64,000 nucleotides of DNA, taken from the NCBI GenBank assembly GCA_964510105.1, contig CAZEAI010000001.1:6200-70199 (forward strand), read 5' to 3'. Made by a program: the position numbers and the translations under genes. Positions 40,785-53,793 of the stretch are shown here, piece after piece. The notes beneath the pieces were generated by a model, which was given only the letters and a program-made list of their open reading frames with translations, was not told where the DNA came from and did no database searches. How positions within the stretch are numbered: the first letter of the stretch is position 1; the number at the start of each line of letters is the position of its first letter. Source of the stretch: an uncultured bacterium (GTDB lineage: Bacteria; Latescibacterota; MWCZ01).

Positions 40785-41000
40785 GCACCCCCTCCAAGCA
40801 TCGACCGTCGCTTCAACGGACGCCCAACCGAACCCCGTGTCCAGCGGCCCATTTTATGGTAGCTCGCCTCCTCGAACATGTCCAGTGGGTGCGCCACCAG
40901 GTCAGAGCCGGTCGTCCAGCGGTTTGACGCCCACCCACCGGTGCGTAGCTTTCACGTGGACGCTGACCGGCCGATGCCAATGGAGCGCGCGGAATCATCC

Positions 41001-41645
41001 ATGAGAGTCGCTGGGAGCACACGGACGATCACAGCCGCTCTTGCGGCAACACTCGCTCTCGCGAACGCCTCCGGAGGCGTTGAGATAAGGTGGGCAGCGA
41101 CATCCGGCATCGGGTACCTGACAGAGATTCACAACCACGTCGATCCGTCGCCGCGCCTTGCCGCCGAGGCCACAACTCGTCTGACGAAGCGAGCGTCGCT
41201 CGGGCTCATGGGCGACTATTCCGTGTACCGTGCGGTCGCGCCGGGGAATTCCGGCTTGCAGTGGCGAGCCCTTGCTCTGGTGCACTGGCGCCCGACAAGC
41301 GGACCGCTGCTCGGCAGGATTGAGCCGTTCGGCCAGTTTGGCATCGGCGCCGGGTCAATGGGTTGGGACTCGCCGACAGCCAGCCAGCGGACACTCGGAC
41401 CGGCGGCACGCCTCGCCATCGGCGCGGATACGTGGATCGGCGGGACATATTCGGTCGTAACGATGCTCAGCCTCGAACGTCTCGACAGCGCGATCATAGA
41501 TTTGAAGCGGCGATACCCGACCATGTTCACGCTGAGCATCGGCGTCTCGATGGTAGCGCCACAGGGCGCGGCGCTTCTTTCAAGGCGCTCCGACAACCTG
41601 CGACAACGCTTCGGTGCGGCACACAGTCCGCGGATGGAACGATGA
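41001..41645 (+). CDS. Hypothetical exported protein (OMP beta-barrel-like)
   Basis: Signal peptide, 'EPFGQFGIGAG' beta strands; stop overlaps the nadE start (ATGA). Confidence 0.5.
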   Translation: MRVAGSTRTITAALAATLALANASGGVEIRWAATSGIGYLTEIHNHVDPSPRLAAEATTRLTKRASLGLMGDYSVYRAVAPGNSGLQWRALALVHWRPTSGPLLGRIEPFGQFGIGAGSMGWDSPTASQRTLGPAARLAIGADTWIGGTYSVVTMLSLERLDSAIIDLKRRYPTMFTLSIGVSMVAPQGAALLSRRSDNLRQRFGAAHSPRMER

Positions 41646-43372
41646 ACGATCTACGGCTTGCTCTGGGTCAGATCAACACCACCGTGGGCGACATCGCGGG
41701 CAACACGCGCACGATGCTCGACTGGATCGAACGCGCTCGCGGGGAAGACGCGGATGTCGTCGCATTCCCCGAGCTGGCGGTGATCGGGTATCCACCCGAG
41801 GACCTGCTCTATCGCCCGGACCTGCTGCGCCGGAATCTGGCAGCGCGAGATGAGATCGTCGCGGCGAGCAAAGGCATGGTCGTCATCTTCGGATTCGCCG
41901 ACGCGCCCGACGACATCTACAATGCCGCCGCCGTGGCCTGCGACGGATCTCTCGCCGGCGTGTACCACAAGGAATTCCTGCCGAACTACGGTGTGTTCGA
42001 CGAGAATCGCTATTTCCAGGCCGGCAACGCCCGGAGCGTATTCGCCGTCGACGGCGTCGTCATCGGCGTGAACATCTGCGAGGACATCTGGTATCCCGGC
42101 GGCCCGGCGGATCACCAGGCCCTCGTCGGCGGCGCGCACGTGATCGTCAACATCTCGGCCTCCCCCTACCATGCAGGGAAAATCGGCGCGCGCGACCGGA
42201 TGATCGCCACCAGGGCGGCGGATAACGACGCGATCGTAGCGTTGGTGAACCTGGTCGGCGGGCAGGACGAACTCGTGTTCGACGGCGGCAGCGTCATCTA
42301 CGATGAAGCGGGGCAGATCCGCGCCCGTGGCAGGCAGTTCGAGGAAGACCTCGTGGTCACCGACGTTTCCCTCGACGCCATATTCGGCTATCGCCTGCGC
42401 GATCCGAGGCGTCGGAAGGAGAAGTATTCCGCGACGCTCCGGGGTGAGGAAGTCCCACGTATCGAACTCGACCTCGCGCCGCGAAGCGAGCGTACCTCCG
42501 CGCCCTCCGGCGAACCCGAACGGCTCGATAGGCTGGACGAGATCTACCGCGCGCTCATGCTCGGCGTTCACGACTACGTTGGAAAGAACGACTTCGATTC
42601 GGTCGTCGTCGCTCTCTCGGGAGGGATCGACTCGGCGCTCACCGCCGCGATCGCGGTCGACGCCCTTGGATGCGATCGTGTGGTGGGGCTCACGATGCCC
42701 TCCCAGTTCAGCTCGGAGGAGACTCGCGGCGACGCGGGCAAGCTCGCCGAGAACCTCGGCATCCGCTTCATCACGCTGCCGATCCTCGACATCAACGAGC
42801 AGTACCTCGATAGCCTCGAAGACGAATTCGCCGGTACCGAGCCCGGCATCGCCGAAGAGAACATCCAGGCACGGATTCGAGGCAATCTGGTCATGGCGCT
42901 CTCGAACAAGTTTGGCTGGCTCGTGCTCACCACCGGCAACAAGAGCGAGATGTCGGTGGGCTACGCCACGCTCTACGGCGATATGGCGGGCGGATTCGCG
43001 GCGCTCAAGGACGTGTACAAGACCACCGTCTACGAGCTGTCGAACTGGCGGAACACGTGGGACGAGGGAGCGCCGATTCCTCCCACAACGATCGAGCGTC
43101 CGCCTTCGGCGGAGCTGCGGCCCGATCAGCGCGATGACGACAGCTTGCCGCCGTACGACATACTCGACCCCATCATCGAGGCGTACGTCGAGCGCGATGA
43201 AACCGTCGCGAGCATCGTGGCCCGCGGATACGACGAAGCGACGGTCCAGGACGTGATCCGCAAGGTCGATCGAGCGGAGTACAAGCGCCGGCAGGCTCCC
43301 CCGGGCATCAAGATCACGCCGCGCGCATTCGGCAAGGATCGCAGGCTACCGATCACGAACCGATCGCACTGA
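41642..43372 (+). CDS. nadE: Glutamine-dependent NAD+ synthetase
   Basis: Nitrilase domain 'FPEL..GYPPEDL', 'ICEDIW'; synthetase 'LSGGIDS', 'ENIQARIRG', 'TGNKSE', 'PPSAEL'. Confidence 0.97.
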   Translation: MNDLRLALGQINTTVGDIAGNTRTMLDWIERARGEDADVVAFPELAVIGYPPEDLLYRPDLLRRNLAARDEIVAASKGMVVIFGFADAPDDIYNAAAVACDGSLAGVYHKEFLPNYGVFDENRYFQAGNARSVFAVDGVVIGVNICEDIWYPGGPADHQALVGGAHVIVNISASPYHAGKIGARDRMIATRAADNDAIVALVNLVGGQDELVFDGGSVIYDEAGQIRARGRQFEEDLVVTDVSLDAIFGYRLRDPRRRKEKYSATLRGEEVPRIELDLAPRSERTSAPSGEPERLDRLDEIYRALMLGVHDYVGKNDFDSVVVALSGGIDSALTAAIAVDALGCDRVVGLTMPSQFSSEETRGDAGKLAENLGIRFITLPILDINEQYLDSLEDEFAGTEPGIAEENIQARIRGNLVMALSNKFGWLVLTTGNKSEMSVGYATLYGDMAGGFAALKDVYKTTVYELSNWRNTWDEGAPIPPTTIERPPSAELRPDQRDDDSLPPYDILDPIIEAYVERDETVASIVARGYDEATVQDVIRKVDRAEYKRRQAPPGIKITPRAFGKDRRLPITNRSH

Positions 43373-43396
43373 CACGGAACGAACCGAGGTACACCG

Positions 43397-43819
43397 ATGC
43401 ATGAGTGGGCCCTCGCCGAGGGCGTTGTCGAAACCGCAAGGCGCGTGGCCTCCGAGCGGGGGCTTCGATCCGTCACGGCGGTTCGTGTGCGAATGGGCGC
43501 GCTTCAGCAGATCGACGACGACATCTTTGGCGAGGCCATCGCGAAGTTCCAGAGCGAGTCCGACGAGGTGCGGAACGCAGAAGTCATCTTCGAGCAGGAA
43601 CCCATACGCGCCGAGTGCCGTCGCTGCGACACCTCGTGGGAAGTCGCAGGGGAGGAGCTTGAGGCGCTTGGCGAGGATGCGTCCGAGGCGATTCACTTCG
43701 TGCCGGAACTCGCGCGCGCCTATCTGCGATGCCCCGAATGCGGCAGCGCCGACTTCGCCGTGGAGCGAGGCCGTGGCGTCTGGATCGAGAGCGTGGAGGG
43801 CGTCGGCGATGAGGATTGA
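43397..43819 (+). CDS. hypA: Hydrogenase nickel metallochaperone HypA (Thermococcales-like)
   Basis: 'MHEWALA', CxxC 'CRRC' ... 'IHFVPEL..YLRCPECGS..GRGV'. Confidence 0.9.
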   Translation: MHEWALAEGVVETARRVASERGLRSVTAVRVRMGALQQIDDDIFGEAIAKFQSESDEVRNAEVIFEQEPIRAECRRCDTSWEVAGEELEALGEDASEAIHFVPELARAYLRCPECGSADFAVERGRGVWIESVEGVGDED

Positions 43820-44564
43820 CCGCGCCGGGGACCCTCGTATCGCCGTGATCGAGCGCAGACTGGAACGCGTCGAGCGAATCGTTGCGGTATCCAGTGGGAA
43901 GGGCGGCGTCGGCAAGAGCCTCGTAGCGGCGACGCTCGCGGCGCTGGTGTCGAAGTCGGGTCGGCGCGCCGGGCTCCTCGACTTCGACTTCGCCGGCTCA
44001 TCGGCGCACCTGGCGCTGGGCGCGGACGGGCTCTACCCGCACGAGGAGTACGGCATCGAACCACCGGTGTTCGCCGGGGTCCACTTCATGTCGCTCGTGC
44101 ACTTCATCGGCGAATCGGCGACGCCGCTGCGCGGCGAGGACGTCACGAACGTCATCACCGAGCTACTCGCTATCACGCAGTGGGGAGAACTTGACGTTCT
44201 CTTCGTGGACATGCCGCCGGGGATCGGCGACACTTCGCTGGACGCGATGCGCCTGCTCCCGCGCGCGGAACACCTGGTGATCACCACGGCATCACGCATG
44301 GCGGTGCCCGTAGTGACGCGCGTCCTGACGCTGCTCCAGGAGCAGGGGGTGCCGATCGCCGGGATCGTGGAGAACATGGCTCGCGATTCCGCCAGTTCGA
44401 TCTCGGATTCGCTCGGCGGCGACTCGGCGCGACTCGTCGGGAGTCTGCCCTTCGACGACCTACTCGAGGGAGCTGTGGGCGACGTTCCAGCGCTGCTGCA
44501 CACGAGCTTCGCCGACGCGCTGCGACCTGTGGCCGCCACACTCGGACTGTTGAGCGATGGCTGA
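43809..44564 (+). CDS. Mrp/MinD-family ATPase, ATPase-type HypB-like
   Basis: 'DPR', 'SGKGGVGKS', 'LLDFDF', 'TPLRG', 'DMPPG', 'VENM'; overlaps hypA; lacks the ApbC CxxC after ENM. Confidence 0.8.
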   Translation: MRIDRAGDPRIAVIERRLERVERIVAVSSGKGGVGKSLVAATLAALVSKSGRRAGLLDFDFAGSSAHLALGADGLYPHEEYGIEPPVFAGVHFMSLVHFIGESATPLRGEDVTNVITELLAITQWGELDVLFVDMPPGIGDTSLDAMRLLPRAEHLVITTASRMAVPVVTRVLTLLQEQGVPIAGIVENMARDSASSISDSLGGDSARLVGSLPFDDLLEGAVGDVPALLHTSFADALRPVAATLGLLSDG

Positions 44565-44588
44565 CCTCGTACGTCAGAGCGCGCGGGT

Positions 44589-46235
44589 GTGACCACCCCC
44601 ACCTCGGCATCCGACGGGGCCGCCGCTCATCCGCCCTCCACCCAGAGGCGGCTGTTCGGATACCTATCGCACCAATTTGCCGGAACCATGACGAGCCGGG
44701 CCATGGGCTTCGTGCGCGAGCTTGTCACGTCGTTCTACTTCGGCGTCAGCTCCGCGGCCGACGCTTTTGTCGTGGCTCTCACGATCCCAACACTCTTCCG
44801 GGACGTGCTCGGCGAGGACGTGGTCGAGCGCTCCTTCATGCCCGGTGTCCGCGAGGAACTCGCCCGGAAGAATTACGACCGCGCGTGGCGCTTGAGTTCG
44901 GCGTCACTGACGTGGATGATCCTCGGCATCACCGCAACGATGGCGCTGGTGTATCTCGCGGCGCCCTGGCTCGTGAATATCGTCGCGCAGGGCATCCATC
45001 AACGGCAAATCGACGAAGGCACGCTCGGCGATATCGTCCGGATGACGCGTCTGCTTGTGCCGTTTATCATGTTCATCGCGCTCGGAGCGTATCTCGGCGG
45101 CCTGCTCTACTACGGATACGACCTCCATCTGCCGTTCAGCCTGGCACCCGCGATGCTCAGCGTAGGCGTTATCGCCTCGCTTGTGCTGCTCACGGAGAGC
45201 ATCGGCGTGTATGCCTTGGCCGTCGGCTTCGTCGCGGGAGCGGCGCTCCAGCTCCTCGTGCAGGTGCCGTTTCTCTGGATACGGCGAGTACGCGAGACTC
45301 GTCCGCGGTACCGCCCGACGCTGATTCCGCCGAAGGGCACCGGCAGGCGCATATCGCGGGAAACTGCCTGGGTCACGCTGCAATCGGTCCTGACGAAGAC
45401 CACCGAGATCGTCGACCGTCGCGTCGCGTCGTTCCTCGCGACGGGCAGCATCAGCAGCCTCTGGTTCTCCGCGCGACTGGTGCAGCTACCTCTCGCCATC
45501 ATCGGTATAGCCATCGGCAGAGCTGTTTCGCCATACCTCTCGGAGAAGATCGCCGTCGGCGACCGCGCGGAATTCAGGAACGCGGTGCTCATCGGCTACC
45601 GATACAACCTGCTGCTCATCCTGCCGGTGACCGGACTGTGCATCGCCCTCGCAGAGCCAATCGTCAGGCTCATCTTCGAGCGTGGCGAATTCGGAGCGCA
45701 CGACACGGCCATGACGGCGCGCGCGTTCTGGTGCTACGCCACGGGGCTGCTGGGCATGTCGCTCTACTCGCTTGGGAGCCGCGTGTGTTCTACGCTGGGC
45801 CGAAATCGCGTCGCCACATTCACCGCCGCGATCGGTGGCGGCGTCAACATCTGGCTCAACTACGTGCTCTCCGCGACGGCGCTCCGACACGGTGGACTCG
45901 CGCTCGCGACGTCCATCGGCTTCACGATCAACTCTGCGCTGCTCTTCACGTGGCTTCACTTGCATCTGAGAGCGGATGCCGCGGGCTTCACCGCGCGCGA
46001 AGTGCTAGCACCGGCGGCGCGAGCAGCGCTCAATACTGCTGCCGCGACAGCGGTGGCATATGCCCTCCACGGGCAGCTCGCATCGACGGCATCAGATGGA
46101 TTCGTGTCGGCGCTAGTGACGGCGGGCTTGCCGCTGGCGGCCGGGCTCGGCGTCTACGCGCTGGTGTCCATTCTGAATCCGCTTCCGGAGGTTATGCCGG
46201 TCGTCAGGCGCCTGCGTGAGCTACTCCACCGTTGA
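44589..46235 (+). CDS. murJ: Lipid II flippase MurJ (MviN)
   Basis: 'SRAMGFVRE..FG..ADAF..IP', 'RLVQLPL', 'FERGEF', 'HGGLALATS'. Confidence 0.9.
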   Translation: MTTPTSASDGAAAHPPSTQRRLFGYLSHQFAGTMTSRAMGFVRELVTSFYFGVSSAADAFVVALTIPTLFRDVLGEDVVERSFMPGVREELARKNYDRAWRLSSASLTWMILGITATMALVYLAAPWLVNIVAQGIHQRQIDEGTLGDIVRMTRLLVPFIMFIALGAYLGGLLYYGYDLHLPFSLAPAMLSVGVIASLVLLTESIGVYALAVGFVAGAALQLLVQVPFLWIRRVRETRPRYRPTLIPPKGTGRRISRETAWVTLQSVLTKTTEIVDRRVASFLATGSISSLWFSARLVQLPLAIIGIAIGRAVSPYLSEKIAVGDRAEFRNAVLIGYRYNLLLILPVTGLCIALAEPIVRLIFERGEFGAHDTAMTARAFWCYATGLLGMSLYSLGSRVCSTLGRNRVATFTAAIGGGVNIWLNYVLSATALRHGGLALATSIGFTINSALLFTWLHLHLRADAAGFTAREVLAPAARAALNTAAATAVAYALHGQLASTASDGFVSALVTAGLPLAAGLGVYALVSILNPLPEVMPVVRRLRELLHR

Positions 46236-46284
46236 CTGTGAGACTCACGGGCGGTACGATCGAAGGTCGAGGAGGAGGATCATC

Positions 46285-48372
46285 GTGCGGCCACGTACGT
46301 ACCTGCTGACGGGCGGGGGCACCGGCGGACACGTCACGCCCGGCGTGGCCGTGGCCGGCGAGCTATCTCGTCGCGACCCGGATGCGCGCATCGTCTGGAT
46401 CGGCACACGCACCGGCAAGGAGGCGGAGATCGTGCCCCGGTACGGGTTCGAGCTTGCGTTCGTGCCGGCGCGCCAGTATGTCTTCCGCCGTCCGTGGCAC
46501 GCCATCCGGTTCGCAGTGACGCTCGGCATCGGCGTATTGAAGAGCATGTGGCTGCTGCTACGGATCCGTCCCGACATCGTCATCGGCATGGGTGGTTATG
46601 TCGCCGCTCCGACGGTATTCGCGAACCTCGCCCTGCGCCGCCTTCGCCTCTCCAACGCAGCCACGGTCATCCACGAACAGAACACCGCGCCGGGGCGACT
46701 GAACGCCGCAGTGGGGGATCTGGCCGATGTTGTGCTGGTGAGCTTCCCGTGTGCTCAGAGAGGATTCTCGCGGACCGCGTACGTCGGCTACCCTGTGCGC
46801 CCGGAGATTCGACCGCTCGACCGAGCCGAGGCGCGCGACAGGCTGGGCATTCAGCGCGATGCACGCCTCGTCTTCGCCGTTGGCGGATCGATGGGGGCGC
46901 GAACCATCAACCGCGCAATGATAGCAGCGCTACCGGCCCTGCATCGTGCAGGCTATGTAGGCGTGGTCCACGGCACCGGACGCAAGCTGACCGCGTACGA
47001 TCCTGTCTCCGACTGCCGCGAACGTCTCGCGGAGACCGGACTGACCGAGGAGGACCTCGACGGCTGGTATGAACCGCACGAGTTCATCGATGGGATGGCC
47101 GACTACTACGCCGCGGCGGATCTCGTGGTGGCTCGCGCCGGAGCCGGCACTGTTGCGGAGCTATGCGCGAGCGGACGGCCGTCGCTCCTCATACCGAAGT
47201 CGAACCTCTCAGGCGACCACCAGGTCATGAACGCGCTCGAACTGGTCCACGCGGGTGCGGCGGACGTTGTGTACGAAGACACCCGCACTGTCGACGGCGC
47301 GACCGAGGAGTTCGTGAGCGGCGACGAGCTTGCGAGCCGGATACTCGCCCTACTCGACGACACGAGCCGGATCTCCCGGATGGCGGCAGCCGCGGCGGCG
47401 CTCGCCACGCCGGATGCGGTAGCGGCAACGGCGGATATCGCGGAACGCATGGCAGCAGGCAACGGCTCGACCGACATCGCTGACCTGGGCCTCGCCGAAC
47501 GAGAGTCGAGAACAAGCCGGTACGCCGAGTTCGCCTGCCGATCCGGTGAGGGGCTGCGCGCACGCGCAGACCGGCTTGTGCAGGAGGCAGAGCAGCGCCT
47601 TACGACGCCGACCGGCGATGTGCGCGCACGCGAGGCGGAGCTTGCTGAACTCCTCTGCGCCGATGACGTTGTCAGGTATCTCCGGTATCGCGCGGTGGGC
47701 ATGCTGGCCAGCGACGCCTGGAGAGAGCGAAACGCCGGGGTGAAGCTCGCCGGTATCCTGCGGCTGCACGAGAGACTGCCATTGCTGGTACGGATGCTTA
47801 CCGACCGGACGCCCACCTCGTGGCTGAAGCGGAAGCTCGGCGCCGACTTCGTGCAGAACGGATTCATCCGGCGCAATATCACCGATTCCATCGCCAGGAT
47901 CGGCAAGTTCGACGAAGACGTGCGGGCCGCCCTCATCGCGGCGCTGGACGACCCGTACTTCGAGGTGCGGTCACACGCCGCACGCTCATGCCTGAAGCTC
48001 TGCGATCTCATCGGCGGTGACATCGAGATCGAGAAGAGCCTGGTCGAGAACAGTCGCGACCGGTCGTTCGAAGTGGTGCTGGAATCCGCCGCCGCGCTGG
48101 GAGGGTGCGCAGCGAGCGCCGCCGCCGTCGAATGTCTGTACGAACTGCTCAGCCACGATAGCTGGCGGATACGGGAGGCGGCACTCGGGGCACTGGACCT
48201 CGTGTACACGCGCGATCCCGCCCTCGTGGAGATCGACAGTCTGCGGGAACATCTCCGGGAGGTCATGGTCGTCAGCACAGGGTTTGCGCCGACGTTCGCG
48301 CTGAAACAGACCATCGGCCGGCTCGGCGCGCGAGTCGAGGCCGGACGGACGCGAGGCGGGGAGGGTCTGTAG
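46285..48372 (+). CDS. murG: MurG glycosyltransferase fused to C-terminal HEAT-repeat region
   Basis: GTG after GGAGGAGG; 'GGGTGGHVTPG', 'HEQN', 'GGSMGA', 'RAGAGTVAE', 'DHQVMNA'; tail with 'LDDPYFEVRSHAA', 'DRSFEVVLESAAALG', 'HDSWRIREAALGAL'. Confidence 0.88.
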   Translation: MRPRTYLLTGGGTGGHVTPGVAVAGELSRRDPDARIVWIGTRTGKEAEIVPRYGFELAFVPARQYVFRRPWHAIRFAVTLGIGVLKSMWLLLRIRPDIVIGMGGYVAAPTVFANLALRRLRLSNAATVIHEQNTAPGRLNAAVGDLADVVLVSFPCAQRGFSRTAYVGYPVRPEIRPLDRAEARDRLGIQRDARLVFAVGGSMGARTINRAMIAALPALHRAGYVGVVHGTGRKLTAYDPVSDCRERLAETGLTEEDLDGWYEPHEFIDGMADYYAAADLVVARAGAGTVAELCASGRPSLLIPKSNLSGDHQVMNALELVHAGAADVVYEDTRTVDGATEEFVSGDELASRILALLDDTSRISRMAAAAAALATPDAVAATADIAERMAAGNGSTDIADLGLAERESRTSRYAEFACRSGEGLRARADRLVQEAEQRLTTPTGDVRAREAELAELLCADDVVRYLRYRAVGMLASDAWRERNAGVKLAGILRLHERLPLLVRMLTDRTPTSWLKRKLGADFVQNGFIRRNITDSIARIGKFDEDVRAALIAALDDPYFEVRSHAARSCLKLCDLIGGDIEIEKSLVENSRDRSFEVVLESAAALGGCAASAAAVECLYELLSHDSWRIREAALGALDLVYTRDPALVEIDSLREHLREVMVVSTGFAPTFALKQTIGRLGARVEAGRTRGGEGL

Positions 48373-49509
48373 ATGTTCCACCTACTGGGTCAATACCTCG
48401 GCGCCATTGTCGACGCGGGTGTCCTGCCGGCTGAGCAGTACGAGCTGTTCGCCCGCCTGCTGGGATACATATCGACGCGGGCGATCGCGGCGTTGCTAAC
48501 ATCGTTCGTCGTAACGATGCTCGTCGGCGGACGGGCTATTCGATGGCTGCACCGCCATCACATGCGCGACCGCGTGAAGGAATTCGGCGCGCTCTCCGCG
48601 ACAGATAAGCGTGGCACTCCGACGATGGGCGGTATCGTCATCATAGCGGCCACGGTTTTGCCGACGCTTCTCTGGTGCGACCTCACGAATCGCTTTGTCC
48701 ACATCGCGCTGGCGGCCATCGTGTGGTTCGGCATCCTCGGCGCCATCGACGACTATCTGAAAATCAACCCGGTTCGCAGTCGTCGCGGCCTGAGGCCGCT
48801 GCACAAGCTCATCCTGCAGGGGCTGTTCGCGCTGATACTCGCGGCGATCTACCTCTCGCCGGAGACCTCGCCTGTACCGCCCGACATGGCCAGCGACTGG
48901 TTCGTGCCTTTCTACAAGCACGCGGTGTTCGACGACGTGGGCTGGTGGTATCTGCCGTACATCGTATTCGTCGTACTACTCATCTCGAACTCGGTGAATC
49001 TCACGGACGGGATGGACGGCCTCGCCATCATGCCGGCGAACTTCGCCGTGGTCGTCTACGGCATCGTCGCGTACGTCATCGGTAATGCAGTATTCGCGCG
49101 GTACCTGCAATTCGGATACGTCTCCGGCTCCGGAGAGCTACTGATCTTCTGCTCCGCGCTGTTCGGGGCAGGCATGGGGTTCCTGTGGTACAACGCGTAT
49201 CCCGCGCAGGTCATCATGGGAGACACCGGCTCCATGGCGCTTGGAGGCGTGCTGGCGACGCTGGCGATCATGCTGAAGCAGGAGGTGCTCTTCGTGATCG
49301 TCGGCGGGGTCTTCATCGCCGAAGCACTCAGCTCGCTCATCCAGGAGAAGATCGGCGAGAACTTCCTCGGGCGGCGGATCTTCTACCGGGCGCCGCTGCA
49401 CCATCAGATGGAGTATCTCGGTCTCGCCGAGACGAAAGTCGTCATCCGAATGTGGATCATCGCCGGGATACTGGCGATGGTGGGGCTGGCATCGCTCAAG
49501 CTTCGGTGA
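48373..49509 (+). CDS. mraY: Phospho-N-acetylmuramoyl-pentapeptide transferase
   Basis: 'KRGTPTMGG', 'GAIDDYLK', 'NSVNLTDGMDGL', 'YNAYPAQVIMGDTGS', 'APLHH'. Confidence 0.95.
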   Translation: MFHLLGQYLGAIVDAGVLPAEQYELFARLLGYISTRAIAALLTSFVVTMLVGGRAIRWLHRHHMRDRVKEFGALSATDKRGTPTMGGIVIIAATVLPTLLWCDLTNRFVHIALAAIVWFGILGAIDDYLKINPVRSRRGLRPLHKLILQGLFALILAAIYLSPETSPVPPDMASDWFVPFYKHAVFDDVGWWYLPYIVFVVLLISNSVNLTDGMDGLAIMPANFAVVVYGIVAYVIGNAVFARYLQFGYVSGSGELLIFCSALFGAGMGFLWYNAYPAQVIMGDTGSMALGGVLATLAIMLKQEVLFVIVGGVFIAEALSSLIQEKIGENFLGRRIFYRAPLHHQMEYLGLAETKVVIRMWIIAGILAMVGLASLKLR

Positions 49510-49518
49510 TGCGCGGCT

Positions 49519-50652
49519 TCACTCGTCGACGGGTCCGCCGCTCGCATCCACAATCGCGCGGACGCGCTCGACGCTTTCCGCGCTGCGTTGCGTGATGTCA
49601 TGTCGCGACAACCGTATGGACTCCCAACCATCCGGTGTGCCCTCCGCGGTCGGCGCATCCACAAGGACCGTGCGAGACATGGTGCGCGACGCGATATCCA
49701 CCTGAATGCTCGCCCGTCGGCAGAAGAGCGCGTAGTCCGCCAGGTGGTAGGCGTTCGTTCCTCGTATGTGATACGCCCGCTCCGGACGAAGACTGGCCTC
49801 GGTGAGGTGACCGTAAAACGCCTGCTCATCGTCGTCGCCAACGACGAGATCGTTCACCTCGTGCGCGGCCTCGAATCGCTGCCATGTGGTGGGAAGCAGG
49901 ACGAAACGAGGGCGCTTCCGCCCATCGATCGGCGCCGGACGCTTCTGCAACTCGTCGATGTGGATGCGGACGTAGTCCTCCAACGCTCGAGGATGTCGCG
50001 GCTGATCCGGGAATATCTCTATGCGCGGGATGACATCGGCGTGCCAGGCGCGCGCGTAATGCGTGATGGTGCCCGCGTCGCCCCCGAACGCCCGACCGAA
50101 ATAGAACGCGACGTATCCCGGCGTCTGCCAGTCGCGCACCATCTTGACGGGTATTCGGTACCACCGCTCCAGTCTCGCTATCTCGAAGTCGCGCGCGGTC
50201 GGCACCACGCCGACAAGCACGTCATCCCGCTGGGATGGTGGCAACGGATCGTCGGAGAACAGGTCATCGAAGGTCGGCGCGGCGGTGAGCCGCCAGAGCG
50301 TCGTCCGGGACCAGATCAGGCGGCGACCACGATCGGGAACGAGTGGCCGGGCCAGCCGAATGGGAGGATCGAAGGCGATGGCGTAATAGTGTTCTTCCGC
50401 CCGTGGGTGGTCGGTCTCGCCCGGGAACAGATCGACACGCCGCACAATCTCGACGTTGCGCACACGAGCGTAGTAGCGAACTCCGCGCTGGCTCTCTCCG
50501 AACGACCGCGGCAGGTAGAAGGCGATCCAGTTCGCGGCGATCTCCGGTGGGCCGTGCTTTACCGGGAGCCGGTACCAATGCCGATCCCGCACGATGCCCC
50601 AGTCGCGCCGGGACGGCACGAGGACGACTATGGCGGGTTCATGCGGCTGCAT
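49519..50652 (-). CDS. Tandem EVE/PUA-like domains + degenerate DUF559 (Vsr-like) domain
   Basis: Internal duplication aa ~7-132 / ~144-270 (WYRLP/WYRIP, IAFY/VAFY, YYAR/HYAR, FP..HPRA); C-terminal 'EQAFY..ERAYHI..ADYA..GWESIRL'. Confidence 0.65.
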   Translation of the reverse strand: MQPHEPAIVVLVPSRRDWGIVRDRHWYRLPVKHGPPEIAANWIAFYLPRSFGESQRGVRYYARVRNVEIVRRVDLFPGETDHPRAEEHYYAIAFDPPIRLARPLVPDRGRRLIWSRTTLWRLTAAPTFDDLFSDDPLPPSQRDDVLVGVVPTARDFEIARLERWYRIPVKMVRDWQTPGYVAFYFGRAFGGDAGTITHYARAWHADVIPRIEIFPDQPRHPRALEDYVRIHIDELQKRPAPIDGRKRPRFVLLPTTWQRFEAAHEVNDLVVGDDDEQAFYGHLTEASLRPERAYHIRGTNAYHLADYALFCRRASIQVDIASRTMSRTVLVDAPTAEGTPDGWESIRLSRHDITQRSAESVERVRAIVDASGGPVDE

Positions 50653-50682
50653 TCCATCCCCTGCGGAATACCGGACTGCCGG

Positions 50683-51831
50683 CTAGATGTAGTTGAGGCC
50701 GGGTAAGAGCCACGGAAGTGGTAGTGCCAGGCGCCAGGCGGCAACAACGTCGGCGAGGCCCTCCAACGTCTCCGCGGCATCCGCGAAGAGCACGGCGTTG
50801 AGCTGTTCCAGATCGGCGATACGCAGCACCTCACCGCCCAGCCGGAGTTCCCACGTATCCGCATCACGACACGCGACCGACATGGCGTTGGCGCATTCCG
50901 CGCCACAGCGCTCCGTAAGCCAGGGCCGGTATCGATGAAGGATGTCCTCATTCAGAATCGACATCCGATGGCCGGCGAGCAGCCCGGGCGCCATCGAGGC
51001 GCCAAGGTCGCGAAGTCGCGCGAGCATCTCCGTATCCTGCGGCAACAGCGGCCCGGCGAGCGTATGAACGTCGTATTGCGCCGCGAGCTTCAGCATCGCG
51101 TCCGCCGCCGCCCATCGTGCACCGGAGAACTCCACGACCTGCGCTACGTGCGGATTGTCGGTGCCGCCGAATTGTAGCACAACCGTCGCGACTACTTCGC
51201 CTCCCGCCTCCACGAGCCAGCAGCGTTTCACCCCGGCGGGCTCCGGCATCGCGGGATGAGCCAGCCGACACACGCTCAGGAAGCCCGCCCAGTCCGACGG
51301 TGATCGAGCGTATCGGACGGGTTCGCGCTGGTGGACGGCGATGAGGTCCGGAATGTCGGTGTCCGCCGCCGGGCGCACGGAGACTGAGTCACCCCCGGCC
51401 CTTGCGTTGGGGACATCGAGGGAGAATCTCACCTCGTGCCCGCCGATTGCGCATCCGGCGCGCTGGTAGAGCCCACGCTGGCCGGAAATCAGCATGACAT
51501 CCGCCCCGCTCTCACGCGCTGTGGCGAACGAGTCCTCCAGCAAGACGGTTGCCAGACCACGTCCACGGTGCGACTCGTACGTGCAGACCGCGCCAAGCGA
51601 AGCAACCGAGAGCGTGTTCCCCAGCACGACCACGTCTCGCGTCTGGAACGTGATCGCGGAAACGATCTCCCCGTCATCCACCATCACGCGGATGCTTTCC
51701 AGGTTGCTCTCACACAGCAGCGTGGGGAACTCGTCGCACATCGATGTACCCACGCCCGACCGGAACACAGTGTCCTCGACTCGTTTCAGGCTAACGAGTT
51801 CGTCCGAGCGGCATGCACGTGGTCCATCCAT
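50683..51831 (-). CDS. GNAT family acetyltransferase (Eis-like)
   Basis: 'LGAVCTYESHRGRGLATVLL', 'ISGQRGLYQRAG'. Confidence 0.85.
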   Translation of the reverse strand: MDGPRACRSDELVSLKRVEDTVFRSGVGTSMCDEFPTLLCESNLESIRVMVDDGEIVSAITFQTRDVVVLGNTLSVASLGAVCTYESHRGRGLATVLLEDSFATARESGADVMLISGQRGLYQRAGCAIGGHEVRFSLDVPNARAGGDSVSVRPAADTDIPDLIAVHQREPVRYARSPSDWAGFLSVCRLAHPAMPEPAGVKRCWLVEAGGEVVATVVLQFGGTDNPHVAQVVEFSGARWAAADAMLKLAAQYDVHTLAGPLLPQDTEMLARLRDLGASMAPGLLAGHRMSILNEDILHRYRPWLTERCGAECANAMSVACRDADTWELRLGGEVLRIADLEQLNAVLFADAAETLEGLADVVAAWRLALPLPWLLPGLNYI

Positions 51832-51930
51832 CTCGCCAATCCTGTCGGTACAGTGTCGTACAACGCTCGCGCTCCGCGCGACCTGGGAACCAGATCAATG
51901 TATGGCGTCGCGCCCGGCCCAACCAAGGGA

Positions 51931-52130
51931 GGAGTCGCCCCTTTGCGTGTACACGCGAGCCGGGGTAGTATTCTATGGTCCGGATGGAAGGCCGCGTCGG
52001 CCGATGGGTATCGCACGGGCGAGCCGATTCCGGCCCGGCGCGAAGCCATGTCATCGAGGTGGTGCGGTGCGCTCCACGCTTCTGCGCGCCAGTGCCGCCG
52101 GACGAACGGACTCGTGAAAGGGACGACTCC
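51931..52130. other. 200-bp element bounded by a 14-bp inverted repeat; candidate structured leader
   Basis: GGAGTCGCCCCTTT (51931-51944) / AAAGGGACGACTCC (52117-52130), one mismatch; inner GTCCGG/CCGGAC; TTGCGT-17-TAGTAT promoter-like motif inside. Confidence 0.35.
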
Positions 52131-52134
52131 AACG

Positions 52135-53793
52135 ATGTCTGAGCAGGCTACACCGTTCGCGCTTCGTGGGTGGGGGATCCGCGTATGGGACTCTCCCGAG
52201 CGGTTCGAGACGGCGGTTGATCGAGCACTCGTCGAAGCCGACAGACACGGTGTGAACATGCTCGATCTGCACGACGGGAGCGTGCCTCCCGGCATCGGCT
52301 GGGTCGACCTGTTCGCTCAGTATCGCCAGGTGCAGGCCCTGCGCAACCTCGATTCGCTTACGTACTCCGGGCAGGCGCTTGGAAGCAGCGAGCGCGCCGA
52401 GCATCAAGAGCGTTTCCGAGATATGTGCCGAAGAATCAAAGCGCAGGGGTTGCGGATACACGTCTGGTATCACGTGCTGCGCGATCTTCCGGAGGAATGG
52501 ATCGAAGCGGAGCCGACGCTCTCAAAGCTGGAGGGTCGGCGTCTCTGGCAGGTTCTCGGCGGAATGGTCGAGGACTTTTTCTCGGCGGTGCCAGAAGTGG
52601 ACGCGCTCACGGTTACAGCCCAGCAGGCTCTGGCGGAGACCGTACGCGACGCGAGCAGCGTCACGTACGGCGAGCGGCTGCGCGCCACCTATCAGTGCTT
52701 GTATGAGGCGTGCAAGAGGCACCGCAAGCAACTGATCGTGAGAGAGGTCGGCGCAACCCGGCAGGAGAAGGACGCTTTCATCTACGCCGTCGGACCGCTG
52801 CCGCCCGACATCACCATCATGGTGAAGGACGTCCAGGGCGACTGGTATCACCTGAATGCCCCGCTCAACCCGGTTCTCCACCAGCTCAAGGGCAAGAACA
52901 TCATCGTGGAGAGCGACCTGTACGGCGAGCATTGGGGCCACCTGCAGGTGCCGCTCTGCCGGCCGGGGCAGCTTCACGCGCTGATTCGTTCGTGGCTACA
53001 CCTGCCAATTGTCGGCGCGATCGGCAGGATCAAGGTCGTTCAGCAGACCGATTCGCCGCGCATCCACGTCTTCGATACGCCGAACGCCGCAAACGTCGCG
53101 ACGTTCTACCACCTGCTTCGCGAGCCCATGCCGGAATCCGACCTGGATACCGCCAACCTCGACGCATTCGACCTCCGGATCTGGCTGAACTGGCTCCACA
53201 CGCAGTACGGCGAGGATGCCAGCCCCTACGTGATCGCCGCGCTGGACCGCACTCCGCGCATCTGTCAGCGGGTCTTCTATCTCGGTGGCGCCTACTTTCA
53301 GAATCGAAGTCACCTCCCCTCGCCGAGCGTGTTCGAGCGGAGCCTCTGGCCCACGTTCACGCGCCAGGCGAAGAGCCTCGGCACGGACGTCCTTCGGTGG
53401 GAGAAGGAGGTAGCCCTCAGGCTCGTGCGGCAGTCGCTGCGCGATATCGAAATCGCGGGACCGACGCTCGACAGCGAAGGCTATGACGGGCTGCTCCAGA
53501 GCTTCGAGCAGGCGCGGGACGTGGCACTGGCCTATCGCGCGTTCATCGACCTGTGCATTGGGCGGACGAAGCCGGAGCAGATGCCGGTCGCCGTGCGCGA
53601 GGCGGAGGAACTCGCGACGCGTGTGGAGGCCGCGCGGGGCGAAGAGTTCTTCGGTTACCTCCCTGAACGGCTGCGCCAGCTCTCCAAGTACATGGAAGAC
53701 ATCACCCGGGGGACGGAGCCCGCGGAGGCCGCCCCCCCCGCCGAGCCGTACGACGACGGCCCTGTGAACATCGACGGCTTGGCGCCGCAGTAG
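52135..53793 (+). CDS. Hypothetical protein (possible TIM-barrel glycoside-hydrolase-like)
   Basis: 552 aa; 'FFSAVPEVDALTV', 'LIVRE', 'IMVKDVQGDW', 'IVESDLYGEHWG'. Confidence 0.6.
   Translation: MSEQATPFALRGWGIRVWDSPERFETAVDRALVEADRHGVNMLDLHDGSVPPGIGWVDLFAQYRQVQALRNLDSLTYSGQALGSSERAEHQERFRDMCRRIKAQGLRIHVWYHVLRDLPEEWIEAEPTLSKLEGRRLWQVLGGMVEDFFSAVPEVDALTVTAQQALAETVRDASSVTYGERLRATYQCLYEACKRHRKQLIVREVGATRQEKDAFIYAVGPLPPDITIMVKDVQGDWYHLNAPLNPVLHQLKGKNIIVESDLYGEHWGHLQVPLCRPGQLHALIRSWLHLPIVGAIGRIKVVQQTDSPRIHVFDTPNAANVATFYHLLREPMPESDLDTANLDAFDLRIWLNWLHTQYGEDASPYVIAALDRTPRICQRVFYLGGAYFQNRSHLPSPSVFERSLWPTFTRQAKSLGTDVLRWEKEVALRLVRQSLRDIEIAGPTLDSEGYDGLLQSFEQARDVALAYRAFIDLCIGRTKPEQMPVAVREAEELATRVEAARGEEFFGYLPERLRQLSKYMEDITRGTEPAEAAPPAEPYDDGPVNIDGLAPQ

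Follow-up and report, generated by a model that had tools for sequence, protein, structure and literature searches.

The 64,000-nucleotide stretch of DNA analysed here (the window) comes from an uncultured bacterium of the Latescibacterota, and in it the gene for MurG, the predicted lipid II synthase, runs on in frame into a tail of HEAT-like repeats. The gene, which we call murG::HEAT, stands in the middle of a block of three genes in the order murJ - murG::HEAT - mraY. The same tail is found in other phyla, usually fused to MurG, and the gene that carries it is nearly always directly followed by a mraY of a distinct subtype, which is inherited together with the tail. The features of the block are listed below; amino acid (aa) numbers under murG::HEAT refer to its 695-aa product.

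44589..46235, + strand: murJ (lipid II flippase), putative start, first gene of the three-gene block; Pfam MurJ at aa 50-493 of its product, E 1.7e-75
46270..46279, + strand: Shine-Dalgarno-like AGGAGGAGGA, read from the sequence, 5 nucleotides (nt) before the GTG of murG::HEAT
46285..48372, + strand: murG::HEAT open reading frame (ORF), 695 codons and a TAG stop, no internal stop
46303..46728, + strand: GT28 N-terminal domain, aa 7-148, containing GGGTGGH and HEQN; PF03033 Glyco_transf_28, E 1.2e-25
46870..47415, + strand: GT28 C-terminal domain, aa 196-377, containing GGSxGA, RAGAGTxxE and GDHQxxNA; PF04101 Glyco_tran_28_C, E 2.4e-26
47437..47670, + strand: linker, aa 385-462, of varying length and sequence; gapped, poorly conserved columns of alignment A1
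47671..48345, + strand: conserved core of the HEAT-like tail, aa 463-687; about five repeats and a C-terminal motif of the TSTGFxPxFxLK type
48373..49509, + strand: mraY, tail-linked subtype; TIGR00445 305.9 bits (cut-off 192.05), single match in the genome

The assembly to which the window belongs amounts to 5.40 Mb in 232 contigs and is 98% complete. In it murG::HEAT is the sole match to the NCBIfam murG model TIGR01133 and the window murJ is the only match to TIGR01695 over cut-off (280.9 bits vs 235.55), while the ATG of the single mraY abuts the TAG of murG::HEAT. The dcw cluster is on a different contig (G000 contig C15, L083:3801-16362) and reads rsmH-ftsL-ftsI-murE-murF-ftsW-murC-ftsQ-ftsA-ftsZ; mraY, murD and murG are absent from the dcw cluster of this genome, and murD is located alone elsewhere (G000:C1:184002-185369). 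Since the only genes for MurG, MraY and MurJ are adjacent to each other outside the dcw cluster, all three membrane steps are single-copy and contiguous in this genome.

Integrity of the fused gene

The longest possible frame for murG::HEAT opens at 46216 and would give 718 aa. We prefer the GTG at 46285 as the start because AGGAGGAGGA is placed 5 nt upstream of it and because the homologue P0002, which is 96% identical to the window protein, is likewise 695 aa long. The preliminary description of this DNA had reported the 695-aa fused frame and suggested that the junction between the two parts be confirmed in sequencing reads. Both have held up. A contig of public run X1 (record 3) spans 47076-47749, including the junction between GT28 and the tail, with 0 differences, and a contig of run X9 (record 20), which is some 95% alike and comes from a different study, spans 46100-48007, showing 94 substitutions and 0 gaps. 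No insertion or deletion is listed for the public-run contigs, from more than one study, that span the junction.

A search of 5.8 billion proteins with the full protein gave 656 hits. Among the best 120 of these homologues, 119 have both the GT28 and the HEAT families, and most of them are 650-770 aa long. A chance joining is excluded, since the whole architecture is conserved. An artefact of assembly or annotation, in which two genes had been merged by a sequencing error or in a chimeric contig, was considered as an explanation and rejected; with the same length and architecture in hundreds of homologues and contigs of several runs and studies crossing the junction free of gaps, we regard its probability as negligible. 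The preliminary description had also allowed that no other genome might have the fused architecture, and this has turned out not to be so, both from the 656 hits and from the genome counts given below.

The MurG part

Both GT28 domains are well over their Pfam cut-offs (PF03033 90.7 bits vs 26.2; PF04101 93.2 vs 22). The N-terminal domain of such enzymes binds the membrane as well as lipid I, the acceptor, and the C-terminal domain binds UDP-N-acetylglucosamine (UDP-GlcNAc); functions for the G-loop GGTGGH, HEQN, GGSxGA, the UDP-binding Glu and HQxxNA are established in the general literature. These motifs had been described as intact in the window protein, and the alignment of 117 fused homologues bears this out: E131, N133, G200, G201, S202, G204, R284, G286, A287, E292, H312, Q313 and N316 are invariant, and G10-H16, H130 and Q132 nearly so. 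The match to GT28 stops at aa 377-384 (nt 47415-47436), not far from the position near 47460 given before. We have filed the protein as a divergent subtype of MurG because there is no other candidate in the genome, and it is predicted to transfer GlcNAc to lipid I.

The fused type of MurG carries three insertions of its own, at approximately aa 117-122, 244-262 and 333-345. It has GYPVR where the canonical enzyme has GNPxR, and PKxNLxGDHQ where the canonical enzyme has PxPxAxxxHQ. The fused MurGs of Syntrophobacteraceae type (P0033, P0041, P0047, P0054, P0092, P0103, P0107 and P0119) begin with a hydrophobic segment followed by basic residues, which resembles a membrane anchor; the window protein is without it (alignment A1, columns 1-100).

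The HEAT-like tail

The C-terminal part had been described as a HEAT solenoid of about 300 aa. Its HEAT-like character stands, while the size has to be reduced to a core of about 225 residues (aa 463-687), preceded by a variable linker of some 80 residues. The bounds of the core are those of the match range 74-298 of P0122. The MurG-MurJ-tail proteins of other lineages have MurJ inserted at the linker.

In the Pfam scan of the full protein HEAT_2 is matched at aa 588-658 with 36.1 bits (cut-off 27.7) and HEAT at aa 615-637; scanned by itself the tail gives 44.3 bits for HEAT_2 (PF13646) and 32.1 bits for HEAT (PF02985). A HEAT_2 match was found in 35 of 35 tails, and a profile made of these tails matches the designed alphaRep HEAT-like repeats with E 1e-39. 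The tail is thus predicted, from its resemblance to the solved alphaRep solenoids, to form a HEAT-like alpha-solenoid. The Pfam and NCBIfam scans contained no model dedicated to it.

The conservation of the tail is about as high as that of the enzyme, with a mean column identity of 47% in the tail (alignment A3) as compared to 46% over the full length (alignment A2, the 117 fused homologues). Invariant among the fused homologues are W479, N483, K487, R529, R530, N531, D556, Y558, E560, R562, W627, R630 and F671. Beyond the repeat consensus the family has elements of its own, W..RN.GVKL.G, GGDF.Q.GFIRRN, DPYFEVR and the C-terminal TSTGF.P.F.LK.

Distribution and architectures

Fused homologues come from Myxococcales, Syntrophobacteraceae, Thermodesulforhabdaceae, Zixibacteria, Fermentibacteria, Latescibacterota and Myxococcota, and at least one belongs to a cultured thermophile that is not a pathogen, Desulfacinum hydrothermale (WP_170920467.1). 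With the homologue P0041 as query, the ESM Atlas returned GT28+HEAT clusters, most frequent in Acidobacteriota and Latescibacterota. The tail is present in 82 of 168 genomes of the Latescibacterota, the phylum of the window. It was also found in 23 of the 401 genomes sampled from a second phylum, that of Desulfopila, which we take to be the Desulfobacterota. It had no match on plasmids in 72,556 records. A scan of genome contigs with the single protein found mostly canonical MurGs (67 of 68 loci, the other one, L006, being a fused relative), and these loci were reused as canonical outgroups.

When the tail alone (aa 390-695) was searched against 1.84 billion representatives, 434 proteins were found at E <= 1e-3 and 150 at E <= 1e-10. 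Pfam scans of 32 proteins from this search showed that MurG-tail is the commonest architecture. Six representatives of about 1,300 aa are MurG-MurJ-tail proteins in which the tail follows straight after MurJ, two of about 1,210 aa are MurJ-MurG-tail proteins, and there are also short proteins consisting of the tail only. The fusions with MurJ imply that the tail is tied to the membrane steps only. Of the short proteins, many are probably fragments, such as P0125, on a contig of 1,062 nt, and P0126, which shares a cluster with a 676-aa member. The same is probable for P0192 (MurJ-tail, 771 aa), whose cluster holds a member of 1,305 aa. As true stand-alone tails we counted only the type found in family f12 of the Latescibacterota, where a 311-aa tail protein is encoded directly before mraY. 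The stand-alone family comprises 13 proteins, 266-302 aa long and encoded on contigs of up to 873 kb, and one of them is named Latescibacteria.

Two variants of the fused protein were also seen. The 1110-aa MurG-tail protein P0244 has about 500 residues between the GT28 domains and the tail, and in these neither MurJ nor any other Pfam family was matched at E <= 0.05. An FHA domain was looked for with Pfam in four long fusions (P0154, P0158, P0198 and P0244), and none of them had a match at E <= 0.05. The related genomes G239 (L129/L172) and G200 (L130/L173) have a fused tail with LC.GAR and GFVRRD replacing RN.GVK and GFIRRN.

The tail gene and mraY

Overall, in 107 of 115 loci the tail gene is directly followed by mraY in the same orientation. 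These comprise 33 of 35 genome loci of the two phyla, three stand-alone tails included, and 74 of 80 metagenome loci. The metagenome loci were found with the pattern DPY[FY]EVR and contain near-duplicates, so that the rows are not independent. Of the six misses among them, five have no more than 223 nt left after the ORF, and the remaining one, L236, has 1.9 kb without mraY. Five Desulfobacterota genomes were checked, and in all five the sole strong MurG is the fused gene and the sole true MraY adjoins it. The tail-adjacent MraY of family f12 is likewise the only one over cut-off; the MurG of this family is canonical (297-311 bits) and is encoded elsewhere.

The link between the tail and murJ is lineage-specific. 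A murJ is found immediately upstream in the window and in G002, G004 and G005, and is fused in G319 (Desulfobacterota); among the loci examined an upstream murJ is restricted to the order to which the window belongs. No murJ was found within about 7 kb in 15 of 20 wider loci, and in the metagenome loci it is upstream in 4 of 80, with a fifth, weak match downstream. The conserved cassette has two genes, the tail-bearing gene and mraY.

The tail-linked MraY subtype

The MraY that accompanies the tail differs from the canonical one. In all 82 tail-bearing genomes of the Latescibacterota MraY scores 247-306 bits, while the families of this phylum that have a canonical MraY and no tail score 380-408 bits, a difference of about 100 bits. 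In the Desulfobacterota 22 of the 23 tail-bearing genomes have a MraY match, and for all of these the best E is 1e-77 to 1e-91; in the 23rd genome mraY is cut by the contig end. The tail-less genomes of this phylum with a MraY match are, in 365 of 367 cases, at E 1e-106 or lower.

D126, D127 and D284 are found in every one of 32 tail-linked MraYs, and the best matches of the window MraY are the solved MraY structures (E 6.5e-80). The differences cluster in the cytoplasmic loop before the last transmembrane (TM) helix, which is longer by one residue and has GRR, (Y/F)RAP, and HH with a residue other than His after it, as compared to the canonical MAP.HHH. The window MraY thus has HHQ where E. 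coli has HHH; the need for the third His of this motif is uncertain.

A separate case is made by the families f8 and f13 of the Latescibacterota (e.g. G011, G016, G020, G028, G044-G065), 47 genomes without the tail, many of them closed. Their only MraY-like match scores 114-129 bits, below the cut-off of 192 bits, and the MurG matches of five f8 genomes that were searched are weak too (117-125 bits). They possibly have a third, strongly divergent pair of enzymes for lipids I and II.

Inheritance of the cassette

In the MraY tree (68 rows) all 32 tail-linked MraYs form one clade, with a support of 100 in the Shimodaira-Hasegawa-like approximate likelihood ratio test (SH-aLRT) and a stem of 0.87. 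The clade takes in MraYs of the two phyla, with fused as well as stand-alone tails, and is distinct from the canonical MraYs that these phyla have; within it the subclades of one phylum are interleaved with those of the other. A tree uniting all MraYs of the phylum of the window was rejected (difference in log likelihood 153.9; p of the approximately unbiased test, p-AU, 1.8e-5), in a test that involves long branches and a group named after inspection of the tree. The 31 fused MurG domains also form one clade in their tree (58 rows; SH-aLRT 100, stem 0.55), with the same subgroups as the MraY clade, and the MurGs of the genomes with stand-alone tails group with the canonical clade of their own phylum. 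The tail tree recovers the same groups, with a deep order that is without support. The matching groups of MurG, MraY and tail imply that murG::tail is passed on together with mraY as one unit. The pattern across the phyla may be due either to lateral spread or to an ancient paralogy with loss.

Surroundings of the block

On the same strand 5' of murJ, at 41363-44564, the window has a glutamine-dependent NAD synthetase (CN_hydrolase and NAD_synthase) and a P-loop ATPase of the Mrp/NUBPL type; neither gene accompanies the cassette in the relatives that were examined. The DNA 3' of mraY holds two long overlapping ORFs on opposite strands (49519-50706; 372 and 377 aa) and an ORF of 785 aa (51436-53793). 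None of the three has a significant Pfam match, and this neighbourhood is not conserved in relatives. A promoter and terminator scan of 41000-50800 gave nothing beyond shuffled expectation, including TTGACT-17-TACGAT in the spacer between murJ and murG.

Role of the tail

The reading we favour, with about an even chance of being correct, is that the tail is an adaptor which ties MurG, and in some lineages MurJ too, to the dedicated MraY subtype in an assembly line for lipids I and II. The product of murG::HEAT would then be the housekeeping lipid II synthase, as predicted from its sequence, with the adaptor at its C-terminus. The tail would sit on the cytoplasmic side, since the inner face of the membrane is where MurG works and since the tail follows the C-terminus of MurJ in the triple fusions, the topology of MurJ placing this end on that side. 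From there it would dock on the cognate MraY at its cytoplasmic face; a direct contact of this kind seems to us just about equally probable and improbable. Docking would keep MurG beside the producer of its substrate, so that lipid I could be channelled from one enzyme to the other in a fixed MraY-MurG complex, and where MurJ is fused or adjacent lipid II could go on to the flippase within that assembly. The two-gene cassette would have taken the place of the dcw-encoded mraY and murG.

Put more broadly, and with a confidence somewhat short of even, the HEAT-like module may hard-wire MraY, MurG and a fused or neighbouring MurJ into a stoichiometric lipid II assembly line which replaces a diffusive hand-over from one separate enzyme to the next, as described for systems of the E. 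coli type, the cassette having displaced the mraY and murG of the dcw cluster in several phyla, partly by lateral transfer. The preliminary description had suggested that the HEAT part is an interaction scaffold or regulatory input in lipid II synthesis. A scaffold is still the most economical reading, and the observation behind it is confirmed; the interpretation is partly supported and can be sharpened towards MraY, since the main association of the tail is with a mraY subtype and not with a general localisation. That the tail controls or localises lipid II synthesis is something we infer.

There are several points that weigh against an adaptor for MraY. The TIGR01133 match of the window protein (aa 6-384) has 233.5 bits, below the equivalog cut-off of 250.25, and the fused homologues tested, with 191-239 bits, are likewise under it. 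Many of the invariant tail positions are usual in HEAT-like repeats (D..VR..A..AL), and they may serve the structure and not an interface. All the support is comparative, and adjacency and co-inheritance would also be expected if the cassette merely moves as a unit; moreover, related genomes are not independent, and the association rests on about five or six deep lineages. Two tail-less genomes of the Desulfobacterota, G571 and G363, have a weak MraY (E 3.5e-92 and 2.9e-62) together with HEAT matches that are merely generic, and they are either exceptions to the rule or have partial genes. In G239 and G200 the tail is fused but mraY is not adjacent, although their unlinked MraY keeps the loop signature of the tail type. 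Finally, the position of the tail directly after MurJ in the MurG-MurJ-tail proteins is equally compatible with MurJ as its partner.

If MurJ were the partner, the lipid II synthase would be docked on the flippase at its cytoplasmic face, coupling synthesis to export, and the adjacency to mraY would be a matter of operon history. The six MurG-MurJ-tail and two MurJ-MurG-tail representatives speak for this, as do the murJ genes next to the tail gene in the window and in G002, G004 and G005 and the fused one in G319. We nevertheless consider it unlikely, as murJ is so often missing from the wider and the metagenome loci, the stand-alone tail adjoins mraY and not murJ, and the matching subtype clade was found for MraY (trees were built for MraY, MurG and the tail). 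It is more doubtful still that the tail recruits soluble or cytoskeletal partners, i.e. Mur ligases such as MurF, or MreB, FtsA or FtsZ, to a relocated MraY-MurG pair, thereby making up for its exit from the dcw cluster. HEAT-like solenoids are generic protein-binding scaffolds, MurG of the E. coli type has been reported to interact with Mur ligases (PMC10214165), and mraY, murD and murG have indeed left the dcw cluster in this genome. On the other hand, no gene for such a partner is linked to the tail, the conserved cassette having two genes only, and neither the distinct MraY subtype nor the restriction of the fusions to MurG and MurJ would be explained.

The tail could also act within MurG itself, as an intramolecular stabiliser or autoregulator, or by binding a ligand (a lipid or a nucleotide), without any protein partner. 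The three insertions of the fused-type MurG might contact the tail, and the invariant Arg, Lys, Asn and Trp residues in the tail would fit such a role. This is nonetheless improbable, as the f12 tail is separate from a MurG that is canonical and lacks the features of the subtype, and as a whole MurJ can stand between MurG and the tail.

Comparison with known systems

How the membrane steps of MraY, MurG and MurJ are organised with respect to each other is still debated in the field of peptidoglycan precursor synthesis. In bacteria of the E. coli type the three are separate proteins, and the lipid intermediates have been proposed to pass along affinity gradients (PMC9046198). In the system described here a conserved putative adaptor accompanies a special MraY and is usually fused to MurG, sometimes to MurJ as well. 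If the adaptor binds MraY, the result would be a stable and probably stoichiometric complex which could be used for structures of the hand-over from lipid I to lipid II and of the flipping. The finding also means that the 'universal' order of the dcw cluster is broken in the same manner across large parts of the Latescibacterota, the Desulfobacterota and other phyla. The preliminary description had known of no characterised fusion of MurG with HEAT repeats, and our literature searches, judged from titles and the openings of abstracts, likewise found no published description of the architecture; the public database entries for these proteins carry automatic names only. The cassette of MurG-HEAT and MraY is thus apparently an undescribed, conserved variant of the lipid II membrane machinery.

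The window protein resembles the canonical MurG (TIGR01133; E. coli) in both GT28 domains, the G-loops, HEQN, the UDP-binding Glu and HQxxNA, and in being the sole copy in the genome. It differs from it in being about 310 residues longer, through the linker and the HEAT-like tail, in the three internal insertions, and in GYPVR and PKxNLxGDHQ. It is furthermore under the cut-off of the model, belongs to a clade separate from the MurGs of the same phyla, and is encoded outside the dcw cluster, 5' of mraY. The window MraY is, like the canonical enzyme (TIGR00445; E. coli 8G01, Aquifex aeolicus 4J72), of full length and above the cut-off, and it keeps the conserved Asp residues. Unlike the canonical enzyme it falls into the subtype clade, has a remodelled loop at the last TM helix and has lost the third His of HHH.

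The tail shares its repeat pattern with the HEAT-like proteins of the alphaRep and PBS-lyase type (PF13646, PF03130), which its profile matches with E 1e-39 to 1e-13, but it is a short, family-specific array with conserved elements outside the repeats (GGDFxQxGFIRRN and FxPxFxLK). A parallel of another kind is the MurJ of mycobacteria (MviN), to which a cytoplasmic pseudokinase domain is appended that mediates protein-protein contacts and acts as a phospho-dependent regulator. In both cases a protein of the lipid II membrane steps has an extra cytoplasmic domain for protein contacts, predicted as such for the tail; the mycobacterial domain has a different fold and a different host protein, and no link to MraY.

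The closest comparison is with the natural Mur chimeras surveyed by Shirakawa et al. 2023 (PMC10214165), among them MurE-MurF, MurG-MurC, MurC-MurB, MurC-Ddl, MurD-FtsW and MraY-MurG. The main text of that survey has the word HEAT 0 times and MurJ is found in it only in a figure legend; the survey left out proteins of unidentified species, which is where most of the MurG-HEAT proteins have their home. The window protein is similar to these chimeras in that a precursor enzyme is extended by fusion, and the idea that a fusion stabilises the complex of the pathway is shared (PMC10214165). The difference is that the partner of MurG is here a non-enzymatic repeat domain, so that the protein does not join two proteins of the pathway as the surveyed chimeras do (PMC10214165). 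Its MurG-MurJ relatives (8 representatives) do join two such proteins, and they are therefore Mur chimeras in the proper sense, composed of an enzyme and a transporter.

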